Source: Candidatus Saccharimonadota bacterium | GTDB lineage: Bacteria; Patescibacteriota; Microgenomatia; UBA1406; GWC2-37-13 | Assembly: GCA_016699265.1 (NCBI GenBank) | Contig: CP064967.1 | Coordinates: 570,001 to 602,000, forward strand | Length of the DNA: 32,000 bases | Reading direction: 5' to 3' | In this document: in pieces, positions 157 to 30,378 of the stretch | Layout of the letters: each line of letters begins with the position of its first letter | How positions within the stretch are numbered: the first letter of the stretch is position 1 | Made by a program: the position numbers and the translations under genes | Notes under the pieces: generated by a model | Databases searched by the model: none | Told to the model about the DNA's origin: nothing | Seen by the model: only the letters and a program-made list of their open reading frames with translations

Positions 157-2919
157 TTAATTTGGGTAATGACAACGCTTGTACTTCTTTCCTGAACCGC
201 AGTGACATGGATCATTTCTACCCGGTTTACCCTTGACCGCCGTAGCTTTAGCGACGGCTGGCTTGCTCGACGTTTTAGCTTTCGCCTTTGGCTCAGCAAA
301 CTGAGCAGTCTCAACAGGACCGGAAAGTACTAATTCTTTTCGCCCAGAGGGCGATCCCCCTTTGGGGGATTCTTGCCCAGCCGCATGAATATGCTCATGC
401 GCTTCGATCTGAACACTGAACATTCTTCTGGTTGCCTCGAAGTACATTCCCTGAATTAATCTCTCAAATAACTTAAAGGCCTCATTTTTATATTCAGCAA
501 GTGGCTGCACATTCGCATATCCCCTCAGACCAATCCCCTGTCTAAGGTCGTCAATTGAGCTAAGATGTTGAGAGAAGTACATATCTATCACCGATAGAAA
601 TATGAATCTAACAACGCCACGCCAGACACCATTGCTTGTCTCTTTTTCACGTTTTGCGTACTCCTTTTTTGCAGTAGAAACCAAGTAGTCTCGAAGACCC
701 GTCTGGTTACGCTCCTCAATAAAGGTTTGAACAGTCTTCTCTGAAACAGGAAGTAACAATCTAAGCTCTCGAAGTGTCGTTGAATTCATCTCGGCAGTCT
801 CATTGCCCAAATCAAAAGTAAACATGTTCGAGTGCATCTCAAGCTGCTCATCCACAACCGCAAGGATAGTTTCTTTGAAGGCACTATCGTCCTTATCTGC
901 CTGCATGAGAATGTTTCTTCTCAGGTCATAGATAATTTCACGTTGCTTGTTCAATACGTCGTCGTACTCAACCGTATTTTTTCTCATGTCAAAGTTTCTT
1001 CCCTCGACCTTTACCTGAGCTTGTTCAATTGCTTTAGTTACCATTGAGTGAGTGAGTGGTTGGTCCTCAGGAAGATTAAAGAAGGTCATGAGCTTTGCAA
1101 TCTGTTCACCACCAAAAATTCTCATGAGATCGTCTTCAAGCGAGACGAAGAATCTTGACTCACCAGGATCACCTTGACGACCAGCTCTACCTCTGAGCTG
1201 ATTATCAATTCTTCTGGACTCATGGCGCTCGGTTCCGATAATGTATAAACCACCTAACTCGAGAACTTTTTTATGCTCATCATCCCACCCTCCTCCAGAG
1301 GAGGATCCCCCTTTGGATGTCTTTCTAACGTCCTTTTCTTTAGTCTTTAGATTTGCATCAGGATCTCCTCCTAAGATAATATCAACTCCTCGTCCAGCCA
1401 TATTCGTTGCAACTGTAACTGCATTGATTCTTCCGGCAGAGGCTATAATCTGAGCTTCCTGTTCATGATTTTTTGCGTTGAGAAGATTGTGCTGAATTCC
1501 TCTTTGTCTCAACATCTTTGACAATAGCTCATTCTTATCAATTGAGGTGGTACCTATGAGAACCGGTCGACCAGTCTTGTTAACCGCAGCTACTTCCTCA
1601 ACAACTGCCTTAAATTTGCCAATTTCAGTTTTGTAGATAAGATCCGATTCATCCTTTCGAATCATGTTGTTATGAGTCGGCACAATGAGAATCTCGCAGC
1701 CGTATATCTTGTGAAACTCTTCAGCTTCCGTCGCTGCAGTTCCGGTCATTCCAGAGAGGATTGCGTACTTTCTAAAGTAGTTTTGAAGGGAAATAGTTGC
1801 GAGAGTTTTCGATTCCTTTTGAATTGGCTGTCCTTCTTTTGCCTCAACTGCCTGGTGAATTCCTTCTGACCAGCGTCGACCGTACTGGAGTCTTCCGGTA
1901 AACTCATCAACGATGATTATTTCTGCGTCTTTTACAATGTAGTCCTTCTCTTTCTTAAATAAAGTCTCGGCCTTCAATGCCGCCTCAAGATGAAATACTG
2001 CCTCGAAGTCCTTCTCATATAAATTATCTATGCCAAGCATCTTCTCGACTTTTGAAAGCCCTTTTTCGGTCATATTTGCCGATCTCTCCTTTTCATCAAC
2101 TACATAGTCCTCTGGCTGAAGTTTCTTTACCACCTGTGCATACTGATAGTACCTCGAGGTGTCCTCTTCATTTGGGGCTGAAATTATATGAGGGGTTCGT
2201 GCTTCATCAATAAGAACGGAGTCCGCCTCATCAATAATCGCAAAGTAGTACCCTCGTTGGCGAAGCTCTGCAGGATCCTGGACCATATTATCTCGAAGAT
2301 AATCAAAACCAAACTCACTGTTGATTCCGTATGTAATGTCTGCAAGATATGCTTCTCGTCGAGCAACTGGCTTCAGATGTTGTAGTCTCCAGTCTGTAGT
2401 ATTTTCGTCGTTATACTTCGCATCGTAGATAAAGGATCTTTCAGATATGTTCGCAGAGGTGGTCATTCCAAGAAAGTTAAAAACACCACCCATCCATCCT
2501 GCATCGCGTCTTGCGAGATAGTCATTGACCGTAACTAAGTGGGAGCCTTTCCCGGTTAATGCATGAAGGTAGAGCGCAGTAGTTGCTGAGAGCGTCTTTC
2601 CTTCTCCTGTTTTTTGCTCGGTAATCTTTCCGTCAGAAAGTGCAAGTCCTGCCATGAGCTGAACATCAAAATGTCTTATCCTAAGGACTCTTCGAGCGGC
2701 TTCCCTCACCAGTGCGAACGCCCAGGGACGAACCTCTTTTAGTACCTCAGGAGAACCTTTGGAGACTTTTTCTTTGAGCTTCTCAGTTTCCTTTATAAAA
2801 TCGCTGTCCTTAAGTTTTCGTGCCTTCTCATCCAACTCATTAATCTGTGCAACAACTATCTTATATTCATCGATTTGCTTCTGGTTGTAGTCTAGGAATT
2901 TTTTGAAAAAGTTAAGCAT
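157..2919 (-). CDS. secA: Preprotein translocase ATPase SecA
   Basis: 920-aa ORF with SecA motor motifs (TGEGKTL, MAGRGVDI, GTERHESRRIDNQLRGRAGRQGDPG) and the C-terminal zinc-binding tail CHCGSGKKYKRCH. Confidence 0.97.
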   Translation of the reverse strand: MLNFFKKFLDYNQKQIDEYKIVVAQINELDEKARKLKDSDFIKETEKLKEKVSKGSPEVLKEVRPWAFALVREAARRVLRIRHFDVQLMAGLALSDGKITEQKTGEGKTLSATTALYLHALTGKGSHLVTVNDYLARRDAGWMGGVFNFLGMTTSANISERSFIYDAKYNDENTTDWRLQHLKPVARREAYLADITYGINSEFGFDYLRDNMVQDPAELRQRGYYFAIIDEADSVLIDEARTPHIISAPNEEDTSRYYQYAQVVKKLQPEDYVVDEKERSANMTEKGLSKVEKMLGIDNLYEKDFEAVFHLEAALKAETLFKKEKDYIVKDAEIIIVDEFTGRLQYGRRWSEGIHQAVEAKEGQPIQKESKTLATISLQNYFRKYAILSGMTGTAATEAEEFHKIYGCEILIVPTHNNMIRKDESDLIYKTEIGKFKAVVEEVAAVNKTGRPVLIGTTSIDKNELLSKMLRQRGIQHNLLNAKNHEQEAQIIASAGRINAVTVATNMAGRGVDIILGGDPDANLKTKEKDVRKTSKGGSSSGGGWDDEHKKVLELGGLYIIGTERHESRRIDNQLRGRAGRQGDPGESRFFVSLEDDLMRIFGGEQIAKLMTFFNLPEDQPLTHSMVTKAIEQAQVKVEGRNFDMRKNTVEYDDVLNKQREIIYDLRRNILMQADKDDSAFKETILAVVDEQLEMHSNMFTFDLGNETAEMNSTTLRELRLLLPVSEKTVQTFIEERNQTGLRDYLVSTAKKEYAKREKETSNGVWRGVVRFIFLSVIDMYFSQHLSSIDDLRQGIGLRGYANVQPLAEYKNEAFKLFERLIQGMYFEATRRMFSVQIEAHEHIHAAGQESPKGGSPSGRKELVLSGPVETAQFAEPKAKAKTSSKPAVAKATAVKGKPGRNDPCHCGSGKKYKRCHYPN
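340..370 (-). repeat. In-frame 30-nt double-hairpin element, copy 1 (encodes SPKGGSPSGR in the SecA C-terminal linker)
   Basis: Plus strand CGCCC-AGA-GGGCG (341-353) directly followed by ATCCCCC-TTT-GGGGGAT (354-370). 26/30 identical to the carB copy, and all 4 differences are compensatory stem pairs. Confidence 0.8.
1291..1318 (-). repeat. In-frame double-hairpin element, copy 2, partly decayed (encodes SKGGSSSGGG in a SecA surface loop)
   Basis: TCCTCC-AGA-GGAGGA (1291-1305), then ATCCCCC-TTT-GG..AT (1305-1318). The second 3' arm lacks GGG, an in-frame 3-nt loss. Hairpin 1 has a third stem sequence that still pairs. Confidence 0.65.
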
Positions 2920-5158: not shown

Positions 5159-6959
5159 ATGATGACTCATTTAGAGCTTAGGAAACAGTTTAAGAACTTC
5201 TGGGAAAGCAAAGGACATAAAGAGGTGCCGCCAATCCCGCTCGTTCCACAGAACGATCCAACCACTCTCTTTACTGGATCCGGCATGCAGCAGCTCGTGC
5301 CAAATCTTCTAGGGGAACCCCACCCTTTAGGAACCAGACTTTACAACGCTCAACGCTCATTCAGATCGCAGGATATTGAAGAGATCGGAGACAACCGACA
5401 CACCACGATGTTTGAAATGATGGGTAACTGGTCGCTAGGCGACTACTTCAAGGAGGAACAGCTCTCTTGGTTTTATGAATTTCTTACAAAGCAACTTTCA
5501 TTACATTCTGAAAATCTCCATGTGACAATTTTTAAGGGCGGCTCTGGTGTTCCTCAGGATCTAGATTCAAAGAATATTTGGCTGAAGCTTGGCATTTCCG
5601 AGGATCGAATATATGAATATGATGATAAGAAAAACTGGTGGTCTCGTGCTGGTTCCATTACCAATATGCCAGTCGGTGAGATTGGCGGACCGGACTCCGA
5701 GGTATTCTTTGAGTTCAAACAGGTAGTCCATGATCCTGCCTTCGGTGAGAACTGTCATCCGAACTGTGACTGCGGAAGATTCCTAGAGATCGGCAACAAT
5801 GTTTTTATTCAGTACAAGAAAGAAGAGAACGGCTCCCTCACCGAACTTCCAAGTAAAAATGTGGACTTCGGAGGCGGTCTCGAAAGGCTCCTTGCTGCAG
5901 CAAATAATAACCCGGATGTTTTCCAGACCAACGTCTTTATTTCGATTATTCAATTAATCGAAGCAATCACCGGAAGAAAATACAGTGACCCTGCTGCACA
6001 AAACAGATTCGTGTTATCGCGGACCATATTAAGGCGGCGGTCTTTCTCATCAAGGATGGCGTTCGACCTCAAACAAAGAACAAGGATATGTGCTCCGTAG
6101 ACTTCTGCGAAGATCGGCAGTAAAGTATCGATCTTTGGTAAGTGCGTTTAATCCTGCAGATATCGCTAATGTTGCCAAGGGCGTAATCGATACGTACGAG
6201 GGAATTTACTTCGATGGTAAGGTCGATACTCCCGAGATTTCATCGTTTATTAAAGATGAGATGGATCGCTTCGGAAAAACGCTTGAGAAGGGACTTCGAG
6301 AAGCAGAGAAAATACAACAGATCGATGGTTCAAAGGCCTTTGATCTCTATCAGACCTTTGGCTTTCCTCTTGAAGTTACCGAAGAGTTGTTTAAAGAAAA
6401 GGGACAGAATATTGACCATGTTCAGTTTAGGACTCAGTTTGATAAACATAAGGATCTTTCTCGATCTGCATCTGCAGGTAAATTCAAGGGAGGTCTTGCC
6501 GACCACTCGGATCAAGTTCTTAAATACCATACTGCAACTCATCTTCTCCATCAGGCGCTGTTTGATGTATTTGGAAATGATGTTCGTCAGGAAGGGTCGA
6601 ACATCACCGGCGAACGTCTCCGATTTGATTTTTACTGCAAGATAAAACCTACAGAGGAACAAACTAATAAAATTGAGTCAATTATTAATGAAAAAATTAT
6701 GGAAGCTCTCCCGATGCGTTTTAAGCTCATGCAAAAAGAAGATGCTCTAAAGGTCGGCGCTCGTTCATTTTTTAGGGAAAAGTACCCAGATCAGGTTAAG
6801 GTATATTATATAGGAGGCACCGATGACCAACCCGAGACGGCTTACTCAAAGGAGTTCTGTGGAGGACCTCATGTGAAAAACACAAAGGAGATTGGATCGC
6901 TCACAATCTTTAAACTCGAAACAATCGGAAGCAACCTATTTCGAATATATGCGAAGTAA
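5159..6959 (+). CDS. alaS: Alanyl-tRNA synthetase, short form (catalytic, tRNA-recognition and editing domains, no C-Ala domain), with two apparent frame breaks
   Basis: HTTMFEMMGNWSLGDYF and the GGGLERL core. The stretch QIRVIADHIKAAVFLIKDGVRP is readable only in the third frame, between A-run 6000-6003 and about 6067-6069. Then SNKEQGYVLRRLLRR follows, and editing motifs HTATHLLHQAL and CGGPHV. Track fragments are 5159..6100 and 6090..6959. Confidence 0.9.
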
Positions 6960-17001: not shown

Positions 17002-20000
17002 CTACTTTTTCTGTTCAAATAGGGTTAGGATGTTTGGCGTTTTGTTTTCCTGTATTTTATGAATAACTCGTGTGTGGACACCACTACTTTTTAAAAATTT
17101 GTGAGTATTGGCTGTCGCAAATATCGGAATTCCCATTTGCTTCAGACGGAATGCTGTTGTAAATATTGACATTTTATTTTCCATACCATTTACAGTTAAA
17201 AATACACCTATGCGAGGGGCTCGCTCTCCAACACTTAATATAGCTTTATAAAATGCTTCATATACATCGTCCCCAAATGCAGCGGCCTCACCGGTTGAGG
17301 ACATCTCTACGTGAAGAACCGGATCTGCGCCATTAAGCTTGGCAAATGAGAATTGCGCAGCTTTCACAAGAACATGCTCTGGCGGTAAAATCTGAACTTT
17401 TTACCGTTATTATAATAGGCATCAACTATTGTTCTTGCGAAGTTATGAGAGGTTCCTCTTGATATAAAGGGGAAAGTGCGGGATGCTCTCGCATTCATCT
17501 CGATGATAAACACGTCGCTGCTAAGTCCTAAAAACTGCATATTAAATGGTCCAGTTATGTTAAGCTTTTTAACGAGTTTCTCAGCATTTGTCATAATTCG
17601 TTTTTCTGTAAGGAGATAGACCCGCTGAGCGGGATAAATAATAGAGGCGTCTCCAGAATGTACACCTGCATCCTCTACATGTTCGCTGAGTGCGCTTACC
17701 AAAATCTCACCATTTTGAGCTACTCCATCTAGCTCAATCTCTTTTGCATACATGAAGAACTTAGAAATTGCGATTGGATGTTCTTTCCCAAGAATTGTTG
17801 CTTTTGTAATATATGTTTCAAGTTCTTCCGCAGTGTTACATACGCTCATTGCGGCTCCTGAGAGAACGTATGAAGGTCGTATCAATACCGGAAACTTAAC
17901 TTTTGTAGCAAACACCACTGCATCTTTCATAGAGTTCACCTTTCGCCATGATGGCTGCTGAATTCCAAGATCATCGCATAGTGCGGAAAACTTCGTTCTA
18001 TCCTCGACCATATCGATTTGTTTTGGTTGAGTTCCAAGAATATGAACACCTTCTCCTGCGAGCTTTTGCAAAATATTATGTGGCGCCTGACCTCCCACTG
18101 ATGCGATTACTCCTTGAGATTTCTCAAATTCGTAAATATCGGTCACGCTTTCGAATGTTAGTTCTTCAAAATAAAGTCGGTCTGACATGTCGTAGTCGGT
18201 AGATACAGTCTCTGGATTACAGTTGATGATGATTGATTTTTTATGATATTTCTTTAAAGCCAATGCTGTATTTACACAAGTCCAGTCAAATTCTACAGAC
18301 GAGCCAATTCTGTACGGACCTGACCCCAACACCATCACTCCTTGTTTTCCTAACGGATCAACATCATGATGCGCACCGTTATATGTGAGATAAAGATAAT
18401 TTGTTTTTGCCGGAACCTCTCCTGCCAATGTATCTACACGAAACACAGATGGACGTATACCCAACTTCTTTCTCAACGATCTTATATTGCTTTCTGTTTT
18501 TTTTACCACTTTTCCAATACGTCTATCAGAAAAGCCAAGCTCTTTGAGATTGAGCATCGTCTTCTTTTTATTTATCTTTCTTGCCTGCGCTCTCAGCTTC
18601 TTCTCAGTAAGAACTATGTTCTCAATTCTGTAGAGAAACCAAGGATCGATACCAGTTAGCTTATGTACTTTCCCAACGGTAAAATTTTTCTTGAACGCTT
18701 CAACAAGAGCAAATAATCTTCTTGTTGTTGGCGTTGTAAGATGATGTATTAATTCCTTCCCCGTTTCTGGTGTGCGGTAGTCTGTGATTCCATCACGACC
18801 AAGATCGAGCATTCGAACTGCTTTTTGTATAGCCTCTTCAAACTTTCTTCCAATTGCCATCACCTCTCCTACCGACTTCATACTTGATCCAAGCTTGTTT
18901 TCCACACCTCTAAACTTTTCGAGATCCCAACGAGGAAGTTTAACTACGAGATAGTCCAGTGCTGGCTCGAAGAACGCTTTTGTTACCTGAGTCACTTTAT
19001 TATCAATCTCTATTAGTGATTTTCCTAAAATGAGTTTGGCTGCAATATATGCGAGAGGGTATCCGGTTGCCTTTGATGCTAAGGCTGAAGATCTGGACAG
19101 ACGTGGATTAAGTTCGATTACGTAGTATTCAAGTTCTTGCTGTGGATTTCGACCAGAGGTCGATCGCCCTTTGGGCGATAGCGCAAACTGCACATTACAC
19201 TCTCCGACAATGTTGAGACTACGAACAATTTGTATAGCTACTGCACGAAGATGATGATACTCAAAGTTTGTGAGAGTCTGACTAGGAGCAACAACAATTG
19301 AGTCGCCTGTATGAATTCCCAATGGATCCATATTCTCCATATTACAAACAGCCACACAGTTGTCATAACTATCCCTCACAATCTCGTACTCAATCTCCTT
19401 AAAATGATGAAGATACTTCTCGATTAAAACCTGGGGTGAGAATGCAAAGACTTCCTTAATCATTTTTTCAAACTGCGTCTTGTCATGGGCTACTCCCGAC
19501 TTCTGTCCGCCAAGGGCAAATCCAGCTCGTATCATAATCGGAAATCCTATTTGCTTAAGTGCTGTTCTAGCAGAATCGATTGACGAAACGGCAATACTGT
19601 TTGGAGTAGGAACATTCATTCCATGCAGGTGTTTAGAAAAAAGCTTTCTGTCTTCTGAGATACTTATTGATGGGACAGAAGTGCCCAGCACCTCTACGTT
19701 ATACTTTTCAAATACTCCTTTCTTGCCAAGATTCATTGCGCAGTTTAAGGCAGTCTGTCCTCCAAACGATAGAGCTATAGAGTCAACTTTTTCTTTTTTT
19801 ATTATCTCTTCGACAAAGTGATCGTTAATTGGGAGGTAGTAGACCTTATCTGCCAGTCCTTCAGACGTTTGGTAAGTTGCAATGTTAGGATTTATCAGTA
19901 CTACTTTGTGTCCCTCTTCCTTAAAGGCCTTAATTGCCTGTGAACCTGAGTAATCAAACTCGCCTGCCTGTCCAATTTTCAATGCGCCTGACCCTAAAAG

Positions 20001-20024
20001 TAAAATTTTTCTATTTTTTTTCAT
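17002..20024 (-). CDS. carB: Carbamoyl-phosphate synthase large subunit, with one apparent frame break
   Basis: Two ATP-grasp halves (GSGALKIGQAGEFDYSGSQA; GSGPYRIGSSVEFDW; NPRLSRSSALASKATGYPLA). Fragments 17364..20024 and 17002..17367 join as NNGKKVQILPPEHVLVKAAQFSF if one T is added to run 17398-17402. Confidence 0.95.
19149..19179 (-). repeat. In-frame 30-nt double-hairpin element, copy 3 (encodes SPKGRSTSGR inside CarB)
   Basis: CGACC-AGA-GGTCG (19150-19162) then ATCGCCC-TTT-GGGCGAT (19163-19179). It interrupts the conserved NVQFAL|NP..VIELNPR segment. Confidence 0.8.
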
Positions 20025-23834: not shown

Positions 23835-25130
23835 ATGTTATCTATAGACTTCATTCGGGAGAACAAACAAAAAGTTGCAGATGCGGCGAAACATAAAAAC
23901 CGCGTCGTAGAGCTAGATACAATTTTGTCATATGATGAAGAACGTAAGCAACTCATTCACAAGATACAGAAACTTCGTGAACAGCGAAATACTCAGTCAG
24001 AAGCTAAACCCGATGATTCGGTCATCGCACAAGGAAAAAAAATTAAGGAAGAGCTGAAGACATTAGAATCTCGGTTACTTGAGATAGATACCAAACTTCA
24101 AGCACTTCTACTTCAGATACCAAATGTTCCATTGGACCGAGTTCCGGTTGGAAAGGATGAGAAGGATAATGTTCGTGAACGACTTTGGGGAAAGGTACCA
24201 GAGTTTTCTTTCAAGTCGAAATCTCATATCGAGCTCGCAGAGGACCTTGATTTGGTTGATTTTGTCAGAGGATCTAAAGTTTCGGGATATAGAGGATACT
24301 TCCTTAAAAACGAGCTTGCCCAACTTCATATCGGAGTCCTTATGTTTGCCTACCAAACATTGATAAAAAATGGTTTTACTCCTCTAATTGCTCCATCATT
24401 AGTAAAGGCTTTTGCTCTCGAAGGAACGGGTCAGTTTCCATGGGGTAAGGAAGAGGTCTATGAGACAAATGACACCGATACATATCTTTCTGGTACCGCT
24501 GAGGTTCCGGTTACAGCACTTCACTCAGGCGATATTCTTGCGGAGTCAGATCTGCCAAAAAAGTATGTTGCGCTTTCCCCATGTTTTAGAAAAGAAGCTG
24601 GCTCTTATGGTAAAGATACAAAGGGCCTGTATCGTGTTCACGAATTTTGGAAAATAGAACAGGTAGTTTTAGCCAAAAATGATCCCGCTGAAGGACTCGC
24701 TATTCATGAGGAACTTATGAAAAATGCTGAGGAAATTCTTCAAGGTTTGGAGCTGCCTTACGAAGTAATGTTGATGTGTACCGGAGATATGGGCGAACCT
24801 CAACAGTATAAACACGATATTAATACCTGGATGCCATCTCGAAACGCATACTCGGAGACTATGTCAAACTCACTCATGGGCGATTTCCAAGCACGTCGTC
24901 TCAACCTAAAGTATCGAACCAAGGATGGTAAAACGCAATACTGTTACACACTAAACAATACCTGCATAGCTTCCCCACGCATACTCATAGCTCTTCTCGA
25001 AAATCATCAACAGGAAGATGGATCAGTCAAGATTCCAAAAGCTCTCCAGCCCTTTGCAGGTTTTAAAGAAATAAGAAATAAGTCCCGATTCTTCAGAATC
25101 GCGGATCCCGATCGTATATCGGGAAACTAA
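23835..25130 (+). CDS. serS: Seryl-tRNA synthetase
   Basis: 431-aa ORF with an N-terminal coiled-coil arm, GTAEVP, CFRKEAGSYGKDTKGLYRVHEF (motif 2) and the class II core. The last ~15 aa (SRFFRIADPDRISGN) are encoded by GC-rich hairpins. Confidence 0.93.
   Translation: MLSIDFIRENKQKVADAAKHKNRVVELDTILSYDEERKQLIHKIQKLREQRNTQSEAKPDDSVIAQGKKIKEELKTLESRLLEIDTKLQALLLQIPNVPLDRVPVGKDEKDNVRERLWGKVPEFSFKSKSHIELAEDLDLVDFVRGSKVSGYRGYFLKNELAQLHIGVLMFAYQTLIKNGFTPLIAPSLVKAFALEGTGQFPWGKEEVYETNDTDTYLSGTAEVPVTALHSGDILAESDLPKKYVALSPCFRKEAGSYGKDTKGLYRVHEFWKIEQVVLAKNDPAEGLAIHEELMKNAEEILQGLELPYEVMLMCTGDMGEPQQYKHDINTWMPSRNAYSETMSNSLMGDFQARRLNLKYRTKDGKTQYCYTLNNTCIASPRILIALLENHQQEDGSVKIPKALQPFAGFKEIRNKSRFFRIADPDRISGN
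25082..25124. terminator. Tandem GC-rich hairpins inside the serS 3' end, a likely terminator for the convergent PBP gene
   Basis: CGATTC (25086-25091) / GAATCG (25096-25101) and TCCCGAT (25106-25112) / ATCGGGA (25118-25124). Read on the minus strand, they are followed by a T-rich run. Confidence 0.5.
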
Positions 25131-25134
25131 GAAC

Positions 25135-27378
25135 TTATGGTGTTGGAGTTGGGGATGCTGGTATTCTACAGTTTACAGAGTTTTCTGTTCCGGCCATAAA
25201 GTATTCTACCTTACCGCCAATACAAGGCTTACTAACTACAGATTCTGGCTTATTAAACCAAGTATTTTGAGTACTGTAGTTCTTAAGAAGCATAGACATA
25301 ACTCGGTTCCAGATAGGCGCTGCTCCTGTAACTCCGGACGCTAATGCAGGATTCATTGGCGAATTATTGTTGTTTCCTACCCATACCGAAACCAGGAATT
25401 CAGGAGTGTATCCTATCGTCCAGTTGTCTTTTTTACTATCTGTTGTTCCAGTCTTAACTGCCACTTTGTATCCGGGTATCTCAAGTTGAGAATTTGGACC
25501 GAATGCTGACTGTCGTGCTACATTATCAGAAAGTATATCGGTAATCACATATGCGGATGCTGAACTAAGTACAGGTCTTTTTTTTGGTTCATGTTCGTAA
25601 AGTTTGTCACTATCTAAACTTAATACGGAGTTAATCGGGTCTAGATCAACACGATAGCCAAGGTTTGCAAAGGTTCCATACGATCTAGCCATATCCAACA
25701 TAGTAACCTCACCACCACCAAGAGTTAAGGACAGACCGTACTGCGACGAATCAATCCATGTGGAAATTCCCAGTTGTCTCGCATGTTCTATAAAGGAATT
25801 TACTCCTAACTGATTTAAGGTTTTAACAGCTGGAATATTATAAGAATTTGCAAGCGCCGATCTCAGAGTCACTCTACCGTGAAATCTGCCGTCATAGTTT
25901 ACCGGACTGTATGATTCCGTATCAGAGATTCTAAAAACTACAGGTGAATCATCTATGGTAGTTGCGGCCGTCATGCCTTTTTCAAGTGCTAGGGAGTACA
26001 TTAACGGCTTAATCGAACTACCCGGCTGTCTTAGTGCTGTGGTGACATTAAAGGCACCGTTTGGAGAATTGAAATAGTCGATCGAGCCTACCATCGCTAT
26101 GATCTCGCCAGTTGAAGGTCTCGTGACAATTACAGCTCCATTCGTAACATTCAGTCCCGCAACCTTAGCAATTTCCTCTTGCAAAATATTCTGTACCTCA
26201 TCCTGAATAGACAGATCTAGAGATGTGTTGACCCTCAGACCTCCTTCCTCTACTGTTCTAATTCCAAATTTCTTTTCAAGTTCTCCCTTTACGTAAAATA
26301 CGAAATGGGGGGCATGTATAGATGTGGTGGAAGAAAAATTAGGCAGCGATTCTTGTTCGGCTGCGTTATACTGCTCTTTGGTAATATAAGACTGCTCAAG
26401 CATCTTTTTGAGCACCTCATTCCTTCTCTCAAAAGCAAACTTCGGGTTTGAAAAAGGTGAGTATATAGAAGGAGCTTGTGGTAATCCAGCTAAAAGCGCA
26501 GCTTCACTTAATTTAAGATCCTTTGCAGACTTACCAAAATATGCTTTTGAAGCCTCCTCTATTCCGTAGGCTGATCCGCCATACGCAACTTGATTTAGAT
26601 ACATCTCTAGAATTTTATCTTTCCCGTACAACCTCTCGGTCCATAGCGCCAATATCATTTCCTTGATCTTTCGTTCTATTGTGCGGTCCGGGCTGAGCAG
26701 TGCCGTTTTTACGAGTTGCTGAGTTATGGTTGATCCACCTTGCACCTGCTTAGTGAGGACAAACTCTTTAAAGGCACGAGCAATTCCTCCAATTGGAGAC
26801 ACGCCATTATGAGTAAAGAAGTCTTTATCCTCAATGGCAATTGATGCTTGATATACGTACGGTTTAAGTTCTTTAAGCTTCACGGGCGTTCTGTTTTGAT
26901 CTCTATAAAATTCATATAAAATCTTTCCGTTTCGATCGTAGATATGTGTTGATAGTGGGTAGTTTACCTTACCAATACTTCTCGGTGATGGGAGGGATTT
27001 TACCAGTAGATACGACTGATAGAACATGGTAAGAATTCCAGCGGTTAAAAAACCAATCAAGAAGAATCGTAGTTTGAGAAACGGAATCTGCTCCCCAGCA
27101 ATAGACCGTCTCACAATCTTTTTTTTTAGCTTGGTAAAGGTTTTTTTCTTTTTAGTGAATATTAGAAAGCTGGCAAATCTAAAGTGAGGCACCTTTATGC
27201 TAAAGTTTGGAAGTTTGGGGCTGTGAATGGTTCGTAGGATAGCTTGCCAAGCTCTCACACAGTATCGACCAAGAAAGTTTAGAAACTTGAAGGGCGCAAC
27301 TAAAATATATCGCGTTACATCGCCGATTAAGATGAAGAAATTGATCAGGCCGAATAGTATATAGTAAGTTAGCTTCAT
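25135..27378 (-). CDS. Class A penicillin-binding protein (GT51 transglycosylase plus transpeptidase)
   Basis: 747-aa ORF with EDKDFFTHNG, GGSTITQQL and RKIKE (GT51), and SSIKP, SYN and KTGTT (transpeptidase). The N-terminal region is hydrophobic. Confidence 0.93.
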   Translation of the reverse strand: MKLTYYILFGLINFFILIGDVTRYILVAPFKFLNFLGRYCVRAWQAILRTIHSPKLPNFSIKVPHFRFASFLIFTKKKKTFTKLKKKIVRRSIAGEQIPFLKLRFFLIGFLTAGILTMFYQSYLLVKSLPSPRSIGKVNYPLSTHIYDRNGKILYEFYRDQNRTPVKLKELKPYVYQASIAIEDKDFFTHNGVSPIGGIARAFKEFVLTKQVQGGSTITQQLVKTALLSPDRTIERKIKEMILALWTERLYGKDKILEMYLNQVAYGGSAYGIEEASKAYFGKSAKDLKLSEAALLAGLPQAPSIYSPFSNPKFAFERRNEVLKKMLEQSYITKEQYNAAEQESLPNFSSTTSIHAPHFVFYVKGELEKKFGIRTVEEGGLRVNTSLDLSIQDEVQNILQEEIAKVAGLNVTNGAVIVTRPSTGEIIAMVGSIDYFNSPNGAFNVTTALRQPGSSIKPLMYSLALEKGMTAATTIDDSPVVFRISDTESYSPVNYDGRFHGRVTLRSALANSYNIPAVKTLNQLGVNSFIEHARQLGISTWIDSSQYGLSLTLGGGEVTMLDMARSYGTFANLGYRVDLDPINSVLSLDSDKLYEHEPKKRPVLSSASAYVITDILSDNVARQSAFGPNSQLEIPGYKVAVKTGTTDSKKDNWTIGYTPEFLVSVWVGNNNNSPMNPALASGVTGAAPIWNRVMSMLLKNYSTQNTWFNKPESVVSKPCIGGKVEYFMAGTENSVNCRIPASPTPTP

Positions 27379-28218: not shown

Positions 28219-30378
28219 TTATGGATAAAGCAGTCTTAACTTAATGTTGTTCGAGAACGGAGGTAGAATATTCTTAAATAAAGCAATTGGATGTTCAACC
28301 ACAAACTCCACACTTTGGGCATGATACCTATCTTTTGCAAGCTCCTGTAAAGCGCTAGTAGTCTTCCCTACCATCGAGCTTATCATTTCCTTTTCACCAT
28401 CGGGTGGCACTGCGCGCACTGTCGCTTTGATTAAAAGCTGAGTGACTCCATTTTTATTAGTAACACTGAGTATCTTGTAACTCAAATTTTTAGACTCAAC
28501 TACCAATCCTTTTTGAACCTTTGGCAGTAGTACCTTGATTAAGGAGAGCTTCAGTTTTTCTTTGCTTACATATGAATAAGTAACTACAACTTCTGCCTTC
28601 ACGGTTACCGACTCCGCCTCCGTCCCAACCGCCTTGTCAGCATTTTTGGACTGAATATCAATACCAGTTAAGGAACTGAGAAGTAATGCGTCTGAAGTGA
28701 GAGACTTTGCCACCTTATCTTTTGCAAACTGACGTGCTTTCTCTTTAATCTGCTCCTCAGATTTAGCTATATCTTTGTCCGAAACTACCTGGATCTGAGT
28801 TTTGGTACCTCCAGTAAAACTGCCATCATTCTTTGCTATTACAGATGAACCGGATTCATCGGCAACCGAAAATTTAGTACCTGAAGCAAGGTTTGATTCT
28901 GGTCCAATTACAGATGCTGTCACTGCAGACTTAACGGTACTAGACACAATATCTGCCGCATCTCCTGATGCAGAGGCTATTTTGACATCGGCATCAAGTG
29001 TAAAAGAAAGGTTTCCTGGTCCATTAATTACGGTGCCCTTGGAAAAGTTTTTACCCTGACTTAGACTACTGTTGTAGATAGTTACGGTACCTTTTGCAGG
29101 TTGCCCTATATTCTTTATTCCTGTGGCTGCTACCCGAGTGTCAAATTTAGCCGTTTCTGTCGCTACCAAAATGCCTACTGCGGTCGCATCAAACGATTTT
29201 GAAATCTCAAGTTTTTGGGACGGCAAAGTCATCGTGATAACGGCAGTATGCAGATTTAATTCCATTAAAAATGCGCCTATTAGAATAAGTAATATACCGA
29301 TAATTATTGAAGAATGTATAAAAAGTCTTCTGGACCGGAAAACCTTCAGCTTACTTAAGTGGGTAGAAATCTCAGAAAACTTCAGAAGAGCAGATCGTAC
29401 TAAACTCTCTACTGGGTTTCTGAATGCCGATTTTAGTAACTCTGATCGGCTTACTTCTTCTGAGTCTTCTCGATCTACTCCACCTATCTCAAATCCCATA
29501 CGTTCAGAAATGGTCGAGGTTGGAGCGCTTCTCGCTTCAGGTATATTTGTAGACTGGTCGAGCGCAAGTTCTTCGTCTAAATCTCCATCTTCAGATCCTT
29601 CAAGCTCACTCTTATTTTCCTGTCTCTGTGTAGGGCGATCCATTGGGACAGTTTGCATCTGTGTAGCGAAGGCATAAACAAGACCCTTTATCATATTGTC
29701 CTCAGTGGCGAGTGTAATGGAAGGTTGATGATTGAAGAGCCTGTCGTCCCAGGTATGCTCGACAAGATCTGCTCCCTCCTGATGATCTGTTGATGGAAGC
29801 ATAACTATTCGCGATGGAAGTACGTGACTTTCCTTAATCGATGCTAAGGTCTCGTTAAGGTCGTGGAGAAAGCTTTTCTTTCTCATTGTAGAAACCTGAG
29901 CTATGAGTTTTCCTGATTGATATATAAAAACAGTAAGGTTAGTCCGATCTGATTCTATTAGGAGTGCTGTTAACCCTTGATGATCTTTATCAAATAGATA
30001 CTTTAAATATGCTTCATGTACCTCTATGAATCCCATAGGTTTGAGCTCCATACTTTTTACAAGATTTTTAATGCTAGATAAATGTTGCTTCTTCAACTCA
30101 TGAGTTTCTGGTTCTACCAGATGCGAGTAAACAAAGAAGATGATATCATCAAAGGTTTTTTTAGTTCTTACCTCAAGTTTATACAAAGCATCGTCAACAT
30201 CATCTGCAAGATGATCCCATCTATTTGTTAGCGTAAACTTTTCGCTGTCAATCTTCACTAGATTTGAAGAATCCGAGTCTGACTCTAGGTACATAATTAC
30301 GCCATCGTTTTCACGAAGGAGAAGACCTATAAATCCTTTACTAGTTTTTTTTAAAAACGAAAACGGATTAAGGTTCAT
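28219..30378 (-). CDS. Hypothetical bitopic membrane protein (cytoplasmic N-domain, acidic linker, one TM helix, beta-rich extracellular C-domain)
   Basis: 719-aa ORF with an acidic linker (ELEGSEDGDLDEELALD), a TM helix (SSIIIGILLILIGAFLMEL), and a repetitive V/T/S-rich C-terminal half. It vaguely recalls baseplate-J-like domains annotated in CPR genomes, which I did not verify. Confidence 0.7.
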   Translation of the reverse strand: MNLNPFSFLKKTSKGFIGLLLRENDGVIMYLESDSDSSNLVKIDSEKFTLTNRWDHLADDVDDALYKLEVRTKKTFDDIIFFVYSHLVEPETHELKKQHLSSIKNLVKSMELKPMGFIEVHEAYLKYLFDKDHQGLTALLIESDRTNLTVFIYQSGKLIAQVSTMRKKSFLHDLNETLASIKESHVLPSRIVMLPSTDHQEGADLVEHTWDDRLFNHQPSITLATEDNMIKGLVYAFATQMQTVPMDRPTQRQENKSELEGSEDGDLDEELALDQSTNIPEARSAPTSTISERMGFEIGGVDREDSEEVSRSELLKSAFRNPVESLVRSALLKFSEISTHLSKLKVFRSRRLFIHSSIIIGILLILIGAFLMELNLHTAVITMTLPSQKLEISKSFDATAVGILVATETAKFDTRVAATGIKNIGQPAKGTVTIYNSSLSQGKNFSKGTVINGPGNLSFTLDADVKIASASGDAADIVSSTVKSAVTASVIGPESNLASGTKFSVADESGSSVIAKNDGSFTGGTKTQIQVVSDKDIAKSEEQIKEKARQFAKDKVAKSLTSDALLLSSLTGIDIQSKNADKAVGTEAESVTVKAEVVVTYSYVSKEKLKLSLIKVLLPKVQKGLVVESKNLSYKILSVTNKNGVTQLLIKATVRAVPPDGEKEMISSMVGKTTSALQELAKDRYHAQSVEFVVEHPIALFKNILPPFSNNIKLRLLYP

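Follow-up and report, generated by a model that had tools for sequence, protein, structure and literature searches.

A 30-nt double hairpin in frame within secA and carB of a Patescibacteriota genome, and the dispersed repeat family to which it belongs

Introduction

How does a short palindromic DNA element come to lie in frame within essential bacterial genes, and what accounts for its pairing? The question is raised by a 32,000-nt stretch of contig CP064967.1 (GenBank assembly GCA_016699265.1, positions 570,001 to 602,000 of the forward strand) from Candidatus Saccharimonadota bacterium, which GTDB places in the Microgenomatia of the Patescibacteriota. This whole stretch is referred to below as the window, and its own numbering is used throughout. 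Three copies of a 30-nt GC-rich double hairpin are found in it, two within secA and one within carB. The original prediction had proposed, from the letters of the window, that these copies covary in their stems and that pairing rather than sequence is conserved. On the evidence presented here, we consider a miniature selfish insertion element of the non-autonomous kind to be the probable source of all three sites, with selection on the encoded protein acting as a filter on its copies.

Results

Structure and coding of the three copies

The element consists of two abutting 15-nt hairpins, 30 nt in total, each of the form TC-NN-CC / 3-nt loop / GG-NN-GA, which gives a 6-bp stem and a 3-nt loop per unit. 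The copies at 340-369 (plus strand; TCGCCCAGAGGGCGA followed by TCCCCCTTTGGGGGA, that is TCGCCC-AGA-GGGCGA + TCCCCC-TTT-GGGGGA) and 19149-19178 (plus strand; TCGACCAGAGGTCGA followed by TCGCCCTTTGGGCGA, that is TCGACC-AGA-GGTCGA + TCGCCC-TTT-GGGCGA) are intact double hairpins in which 12 of 12 pairs are formed. They differ from each other at 4 of 30 positions (4, 12, 18 and 28), and these make up two compensatory pairs, C:G to A:T and C:G to G:C. The copy at 1291-1320 (plus strand; TCCTCCAGAGGAGGA followed by TCCCCCTTTGGATGT, that is TCCTCC-AGA-GGAGGA + TCCCCC-TTT-GGATGT) is an older, half-decayed one: its first hairpin is perfect and has a distinct stem (TCCTCC/GGAGGA), and its second unit is decayed. 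The two intact copies had been predicted one base further to the right, and the register given here fits the stems better; the two compensatory pairs and the distinct, perfectly pairing first stem of the third copy were both confirmed. The window has a GC content of 41% and is ∼92% coding, and the element copies have 57-70% GC.

The loops AGA and TTT lie on the plus strand in all three copies, and the host genes lie on the minus strand and read the element in a single common frame. Two copies are hosted by secA (157-2919, minus strand, 920 aa); a stretch of SecA that spans an insert reads ...QESPKGGSPSGRK.... Read on the minus strand, copy 340-369 is TCC CCC AAA GGG GGA TCG CCC TCT GGG CGA and encodes SPKGGSPSGR, in the context ..QE SPKGGSPSGR KE.. 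of the SecA C-terminal linker. Copy 1291-1320 encodes (T)SKGGSSSGG, in the context ..KT SKGGSSSGG GW.., and lies in a variable region of SecA directly ahead of the conserved GGL..GTERHESRRIDNQLRGR motif. The remaining copy, 19149-19178, is hosted by carB (17364-20024, minus strand, open reading frame (ORF) as assembled) and encodes SPKGRSTSGR (..AL SPKGRSTSGR NP..); in CarB this peptide occupies a loop of the first ATP-grasp domain. The prediction of about ten in-frame codons per copy is borne out by these three peptides.

As assembled, carB is broken by two frameshifts (17395-17403 and 17005-17012, minus strand), each at a run of five A bases (TTTTT on the plus strand), and an intact reading would extend to about 16805. 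All other full-length CarB members of the species cluster are intact, with 1074 aa. The frameshifts are probably a homopolymer assembly error and not the mark of a pseudogene.

Chance, codon usage and known families

In 100 dinucleotide-shuffled versions of the window, the core pattern of the element never occurred. A covariance model trained on 74 distinct family members, run on the window with filters off, retrieved exactly the three copies at E values of 2e-10 to 2e-7 (1.7e-10 for 340-369, 1.5e-7 for 1291-1320 and 3.7e-10 for 19149-19178), and nothing else below E = 1. The predicted fold of both intact copies is the double hairpin, with energies of -11.2 and -11.7 kcal/mol (the latter for 340-369) and z-scores of -3.8 to -5.3; the decayed copy retains only its first hairpin in the predicted fold.

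The notion that Gly/Ser/Pro codons alone might yield such a repeat was put to the test by sampling synonymous codons for the peptide from the usage of the window. The probability of obtaining 12 of 12 pairs was at most 1e-5; codon composition therefore cannot account for the palindrome, and both the repeat and its pairing stand. The window copies employ the rarest codons, namely CCC, GGG, CGA and TCG.

Searches of the window and 14 further loci against Rfam 15 at the gathering threshold gave no match on the element, and a permissive Rfam search of 200-1500 returned nothing on copy 340-369 at E ≤ 10. A match to SNORD124 across 1290-1380, which spans the decayed copy, was rejected as sub-threshold (21.1 bits against a gathering score of 40). 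Literature searches, including searches for the encoded peptides, found no description of the double-hairpin family, in line with the original prediction, which could not name one. Three familiar structures were also set aside. A CRISPR repeat does not fit, since the copies are single and dispersed (three in 32 kb, in different genes) and form no regular array. For an intrinsic terminator, the flanks are the wrong ones on both strands (T upstream, A downstream), and the window copies lie inside ORFs. Interruption of tRNA genes was rejected because ARAGORN places tRNAs beside elements and none spanning them. Some intergenic copies are adjoined by tRNA-like fragments (L008 1-70; L036 about 800-880; L numbers denote loci), for example as half a tRNA-like sequence immediately 5', and the intact tRNA genes are found close by.

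A repeat family that crosses phyla

An exact-pattern scan with 19 specified bases was performed on 596 Gb of reference genomes, taking one genome per species, and yielded 49 loci where about 4 were expected by chance. One of them (L047) shows no pairing and looks like a chance match. Most matches came from Patescibacteria (Jacksonbacteria, Kuenenbacteria, Komeilibacteria, Moranbacteria, Roizmanbacteria, Berkelbacteria and Saccharibacteria), and paired copies were also present in a 7-Mb Saprospiraceae chromosome and in metagenome-assembled genomes of other Bacteroidota and of Ignavibacteria. Identical 30-mers are common to Patescibacteria and Saprospiraceae. With a looser pattern, at least 120 loci were found in metagenomes; 196 distinct copies were counted in the 1.27 Mb of fetched DNA and none in shuffled controls. 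An association with phages was rejected, as a single match was obtained among 2.9 million viral contigs.

Pairing is a property of the family as a whole. The four stem positions that the search pattern left free were fully Watson-Crick in 119 of 153 copies. Among the 74 distinct sequences, 97.1% of cells were paired compared with 80.4% in shuffles, and cells with a double change numbered 144 compared with 48.5; when the partners were slid by 1-3 columns, pairing was at most 48%. The AGA and TTT loops and the inner CC/GG pairs are near-invariant. The outer TC/GA pairs are the only other fixed part, and even there T:A is sometimes replaced by C:G; the centre of the element then reads GGCC, GGTC or GACC instead of GATC. 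Pairing therefore accounts for the central GATC, which was rejected as a conserved site in its own right.

Insertions in secA, carB, uvrD and uvrA

The comparison of orthologues, which had been suggested as a check, gave a clear outcome: close orthologues of SecA and CarB lack the ten codons. Both decapeptides are absent from SecA orthologues at 80-87% identity. At the first secA site (1291-1320) an exact 30-nt gap is present in L054 and L055, and once the element is deleted, 300 of 300 nt align without a gap; solved SecA structures differ from one another in the region of this site. At the other secA site (site 2 of P0004; P numbers denote proteins), L054 (about 6600-6640) carries a different 8-residue insert, QKPFSIAQ, whose DNA contains ATCGC. 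This insert is either a very decayed copy or unrelated, and an origin from a decayed copy could not be demonstrated.

The CarB insert is absent from the sister orthologue (P0122/L178) and from most relatives. It is present with a decayed second unit in P0124/L177, and P0127/L179 has a heavily decayed 30 nt in the same place, so that the carB copy occurs in three lineages and is missing from their sisters. On its 3' side, the carB copy is followed by 15 nt that are common to the window and L177 and missing from L178. No recombination tract around the insert was discernible beyond the element and these 15 nt, the divergence being too high. Aligned with the structure of human CPS1 in the PDB, the peptide corresponds to an 11-residue gap in a loop. 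The orthologue P0129 carries a long unrelated insert (..NPNPKGIKNHESGIKGKNHNSKFLLHNSSQR..) in the loop that holds 19149-19178, and this loop is one that accepts several kinds of insertion. Between carA and carB, L178 (9590-9958) has a small gene with 23S_rRNA_IVP / bAvd-like domains that is absent in the window.

A fourth copy in the same genome, just beyond the start of the window, lies in a UvrD-like helicase gene (L001 14149-14178) and is decayed. The orthologous copy in L054 (7705-7734; TCGCCCAAAGGGCGATCGCCTTTTAGGCGA) is perfect, with AAA and TTT loops and one inner pair now T:A, and the copy is missing in L055. This uvrD copy is read in another frame (NRLKGDRPLGEN). In UvrA, the decapeptide corresponds to an exact 10-residue gap between FSFN(V/L) and KGGRCEAC in the solved T. 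maritima UvrA (3PIH).

Pairing was lost after insertion at the first secA site, in the uvrD copy of L001 as compared with L054, and in the carB copies of L177 and L179. Because orthologous copies lose their pairing in some lineages, the covariation reflects family-level diversity: it is the property of a large, diversified family and not compensatory evolution at these coding loci. The claim that pairing is conserved over sequence thus holds family-wide, and no sign was seen that structure is under selection in the coding sequences concerned. Within the species-level SecA and CarB clusters, the peptides are identical in every member whose sequence extends over the sites.

Location, orientation and insertion site

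Some 35-45% of copies lie in long ORFs, namely 53 of 153 for ORFs of at least 600 nt and 70 of 168 for ORFs of at least 450 nt. The remainder, more than half of the family, are intergenic, which would be a strong intergenic excess if coding density elsewhere matches the 92% of the window. Genic hosts elsewhere include DnaK, UvrB, RecG, PurL, AlaRS, AsnB, HsdS, UvrA and a peptidase with a type IX secretion system tail. No positional preference for the 5' or 3' ends of genes was observed. The highest density was seen in a gas-vesicle-like cluster (L137 1-7692; GvpL/F-like, CDC48-like AAA and Hsp20-like genes), where six copies occur in 7.7 kb; five of the six are in frame, and a single Hsp20-like gene and a single GvpL-like gene each hold two of these.

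Genic copies favour the orientation of the window copies by 52 to 18 (n = 70). By strand and frame, 24 share those of the window copies, and the other five combinations hold 13, 5, 4, 4 and 3 (n = 53). The favoured strand and frame encode S-x-K-G-G/R-S-x-S-G-G/R, and the other frames give unrelated peptides such as PPKADQPLA and NRLKGDRPLGE. The orientation of intergenic copies relative to neighbouring genes is unbiased (29/26 and 28/33), and a replication- or transcription-linked strand bias as in IS200/IS605 was rejected on this ground. The commonest intergenic stem, TCA..TGA, is a stop in the S-x-K-G frame, and genic copies in that frame have G or C there. A common orientation and frame for all copies had been claimed; this holds for the three window copies and not for the family, given the other genic frames, the uvrD copy and the intergenic majority. 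The shared orientation and frame of genic copies are best attributed to survivorship, the translated product being what is filtered, and not to the way in which the element inserts.

Comparison of filled and empty sites showed that insertions are clean. L146 and L092 differ by an exact 30-nt gap, tta/(30 nt)/aaa in the former and tta/gaa in the latter (slashes mark the element boundaries), and no target duplication was found in the filled/empty comparisons available (secA site 1; L146 and L092). Across 163 copies, T occurs at -2 in 129, A at +2 in 122, T at -1 in 94 and A at +1 in 82; neither the T at -2 nor the A at +2 is present in only 4. The flanks are inverted (T..A), not direct. In UvrA the flanking bases gtc/aag belong to conserved host codons, and the consensus T-N/N-A is therefore a target preference.

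In several genomes the double hairpin is also a module of larger, genome-specific repeats. In Jacksonbacteria (L017, L021, L025, L031, L044, L046, L048) the 30-mer splits gtcatYccgagc..gtcgagg/gatccct.. of a larger palindromic repeat, a motif that pairs with an inverted partner downstream, and further cases are L033, L040 and L043, as well as L011, L029, L053 and L028. One LBTZ01 copy does not have an 18-nt segment that is found in the other two.

Search for a mobilising enzyme

Y1_Tnp genes were detected in 7 of about 170 element-bearing loci, and also in the close relative L179. In L167, one element lies 15 nt past the stop codon of a Y1_Tnp gene. L106 (6509-7345) has a 253-codon open frame, Y1-like (RAYT-like; RAYT, REP-associated tyrosine transposase, where REP stands for repetitive extragenic palindrome), flanked by 15-nt hairpins AAGGAT-GCG-ATCCTT, of which the upstream one is inverted; these hairpins have the 6+3+6 geometry of the element units. 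Together with the co-occurrence of Y1_Tnp genes, the L167 and L106 cases give a weak hint towards a Y1 enzyme.

In L179 (4139-4919), an IS200-like insertion lies between the genes for a penicillin-binding protein and serS, at a place syntenic with 25130-25135 of the window. It consists of a 218-aa Y1_Tnp gene that has the same 21-nt hairpin, AACACACCG-GGG-CGGTGTGTT, on both flanks, and both gene and hairpin are absent from the window. Elsewhere in the window, a sortase gene has as its neighbour a 719-aa ORF (28219-30378), for which a Baseplate_J-like match is weak (E = 7e-5).

Discussion

How the element may spread

An enzyme that reads hairpins is the model we favour because insertions are clean and of unit length, copies are many and spread across phyla, stems covary, a target is preferred without duplication, and copies decay neutrally. 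An enzyme acting in trans would recognise the hairpins as they fold on single-stranded DNA, and would both copy the element and insert it; variants that do not pair would then fail to propagate, which would give rise to the covariation seen family-wide. An HUH/Y1 transposase, IS200-like or RAYT-like, is weakly favoured as the candidate. As 30 nt amount to 10 codons, an insertion would preserve the reading frame, and an insertion within a gene would survive only if it contains no stop, falls in a surface loop or linker that tolerates it and codes for a peptide that is flexible and hydrophilic. Best tolerated would be the strand and frame that give S-x-K-G-G/R-S-x-S-G-G/R, and for this reason the window copies would share one orientation and frame. 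Most likely, the element is read through and translated, which adds ten residues to SecA twice and to CarB once.

We put forward a stronger statement tentatively, as a possibility that falls short of being probable: a 30-nt DNA of two hairpins moves by itself, with neither cargo nor target duplication, into T-N/N-A sites across phyla (Patescibacteria, Bacteroidota and others) by means of a structure-specific enzyme, and repeatedly writes ten-residue Ser/Gly linkers into essential proteins, among them SecA, CarB, UvrA, UvrB, DnaK, RecG and AlaRS. If true, it would be among the smallest mobile DNAs in prokaryotes, and a force in protein evolution like that of the Rickettsia palindromic elements over a large part of the bacterial tree.

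Several observations weigh against a selfish insertion element. No transposase was found in the window, nor any RAYT/Y1_Tnp gene in its 10-kb extension; among the loci examined, no transposase is tightly and repeatedly linked to the element, and the Y1 genes examined carry hairpins of their own that differ from it. The stems differ among all copies of this genome, unlike those of a recent burst from one master. No presence/absence polymorphism was seen within the species clusters among the SecA and CarB members that cover the sites, and recent mobility in this genome is therefore not demonstrated. The lineages that bear the insert are not monophyletic for carB or uvrD in neighbour-joining trees, a pattern that requires recombination, several losses, or more than one gain at a given site. 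Where the 30-mer is a module of larger repeats, it may not always be the mobile unit. Lastly, identical 30-mers across phyla and fixed loops would fit a conserved binding site of a host protein equally well.

Alternative explanations

The last of these points leads to the main rival, a host-functional nucleic-acid motif, which we regard as unlikely. Here the double hairpin would be bound or recognised by a conserved protein, for instance a DNA-uptake receptor, a protein of the nucleoid, or a factor in repair or replication. Wherever it arrived, it would then be kept in place by selection or else by uptake that is biased, together with recombination. The near-invariance of loops and inner pairs across phyla and the identical 30-mers of Patescibacteria and Saprospiraceae agree with such a site, as do copies without orientation bias or target duplication and the failure to find a linked transposase. 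Some copies are still perfect where orthologous ones decay, and the patchy, non-monophyletic distribution is compatible with uptake and recombination. However, copies are created by clean 30-nt insertions and not by point mutation, several orthologous copies decay freely, close relatives lack copies at the same sites and gene ends are not preferred. The origin of each insertion would still require a mechanism.

Palindromes could also be generated locally, by template switching or hairpin-primed synthesis at breaks that writes the second arm from the first. That the stems differ in all four copies of this genome while the intact ones pair perfectly would be expected from such a process, and so would the absence of target duplication. 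It is nevertheless improbable, since hundreds of copies from unrelated genomes agree in their loops, their inner pairs, the order of their units and a length of 30 nt, and the units have a limited set of stem types.

A role at the level of RNA, in which the hairpins act in the transcript (mRNA stability, regulation, translational pausing, removal or bypass), could draw on the 52:18 strand bias of genic copies relative to transcription and on the stability of the hairpins in the predicted fold. The bias is not seen in intergenic copies, though, and the frame bias together with the in-frame avoidance of the TGA variant indicates read-through translation. The flanks, T upstream and A downstream, are the reverse of those of an intrinsic terminator on either strand, and there is no matching Rfam family; we consider such a role very improbable. 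Selection for the peptide S-x-K-G-G-S-x-S-G-G/R as a linker or short linear motif, with the palindrome incidental, would explain why the same decapeptide recurs in many proteins, but it is effectively refuted by the probability of the palindrome given the peptide (≤ 1e-5), by the non-coding majority of copies, by the unrelated peptides that the same DNA gives in other frames and by close orthologues that lack the peptide.

Implications

To our knowledge, selfish DNA that lies in frame in essential genes has until now been a curiosity of Rickettsia. With a selfish insertion element as the explanation, the phenomenon would extend to a much smaller element, one with a wide distribution inside and outside the Candidate Phyla Radiation, and would indicate a lower size limit for a mobile or propagating DNA unit. 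Enzyme discovery would gain a clean substrate of 30 nt with defined hairpins and a T-N/N-A target. For annotation, the family accounts for recurrent SxKGGSxSGG and PPKADQPLAE-like segments of predicted proteins and for spurious small ORFs in uncultivated bacteria. In phylogenetics, the insertions can serve as presence/absence markers, and they call for caution with trees built from these proteins. For genome scanning, covariation in coding sequence need not reflect local RNA structure, since it can also result when a whole family is constrained in how it propagates.

Comparison with known systems

Rickettsia palindromic elements are reportedly about 100-150 bp long and confined to Rickettsia. 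They are said to be hairpin-forming selfish palindromes, found between genes and in frame in essential genes, where they occupy tolerated surface segments and decay after insertion. The element described here likewise lies in frame in genes with the ORF kept (secA twice, carB and uvrD; uvrA, uvrB, dnaK, recG, alaS and purL elsewhere). It differs by description: at 30 nt it is three to five times shorter, it consists of two tandem hairpins, and it occurs in other phyla, the present host belonging to the Woesebacteria/Microgenomates.

The small dispersed repeats (SDRs) of heterocystous cyanobacteria are said to be single hairpins of 21-27 nt that insert cleanly and are often nested in other repeats; reportedly they are essentially intergenic, with no encoded function or known mobilising enzyme. 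Our element is similarly small, cleanly inserted and nested in larger repeats, but it is a double hairpin, lies in frame in essential genes, where SDRs are not known to occur, and differs in taxa and sequence. Miniature inverted-repeat transposable elements have terminal inverted repeats that match a parent insertion sequence, produce target-site duplications, measure roughly 50-500 bp and sometimes lie within genes. The present element resembles them as a small non-autonomous repeat that is sometimes genic; it differs in having no target-site duplication and two self-paired units instead of termini around a core, and no parent insertion sequence was identified.

REPs are short (about 20-40 nt), imperfectly palindromic GC-rich hairpins that are dispersed, extragenic and non-autonomous, leave no target duplication and are moved by RAYT, an enzyme of the Y1/HUH type whose recognition of structure maintains their covariation; in a REPIN, two inverted REPs form one long hairpin, and the hallmark of the system is a RAYT gene flanked by its own REPs (PMC3116915). 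Shortness (30 nt), GC-richness, the palindromic form, many dispersed copies, structural covariation and the absence of duplication are all shared with the element. In contrast, its units are tandem and each pairs with itself, all three window copies and the uvrD copy are intragenic, and no cognate RAYT flanked by the element was identified in the window, the 10-kb extension or the loci examined.

The double-hairpin elements (DHEs) of fungal mitochondria (Paquin & Lang), as far as the account in PMC10085805 goes, are ∼35 nt long and GC-rich in AT-rich genomes, are thought to be mobile and can be identical across species; that account places them in intergenic regions and inside rRNA genes, and none in a protein-coding gene. 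The element shares with them the form of a GC-rich double hairpin (57-70% GC against 41% in the window). DHEs are mitochondrial and eukaryotic, whereas the context here is bacterial (secA, carB, tRNA), and the two are set apart by description. Taken together, the double hairpins found here form a large, apparently undescribed family that is comparable to Rickettsia palindromic elements, REPINs, SDRs and DHEs.

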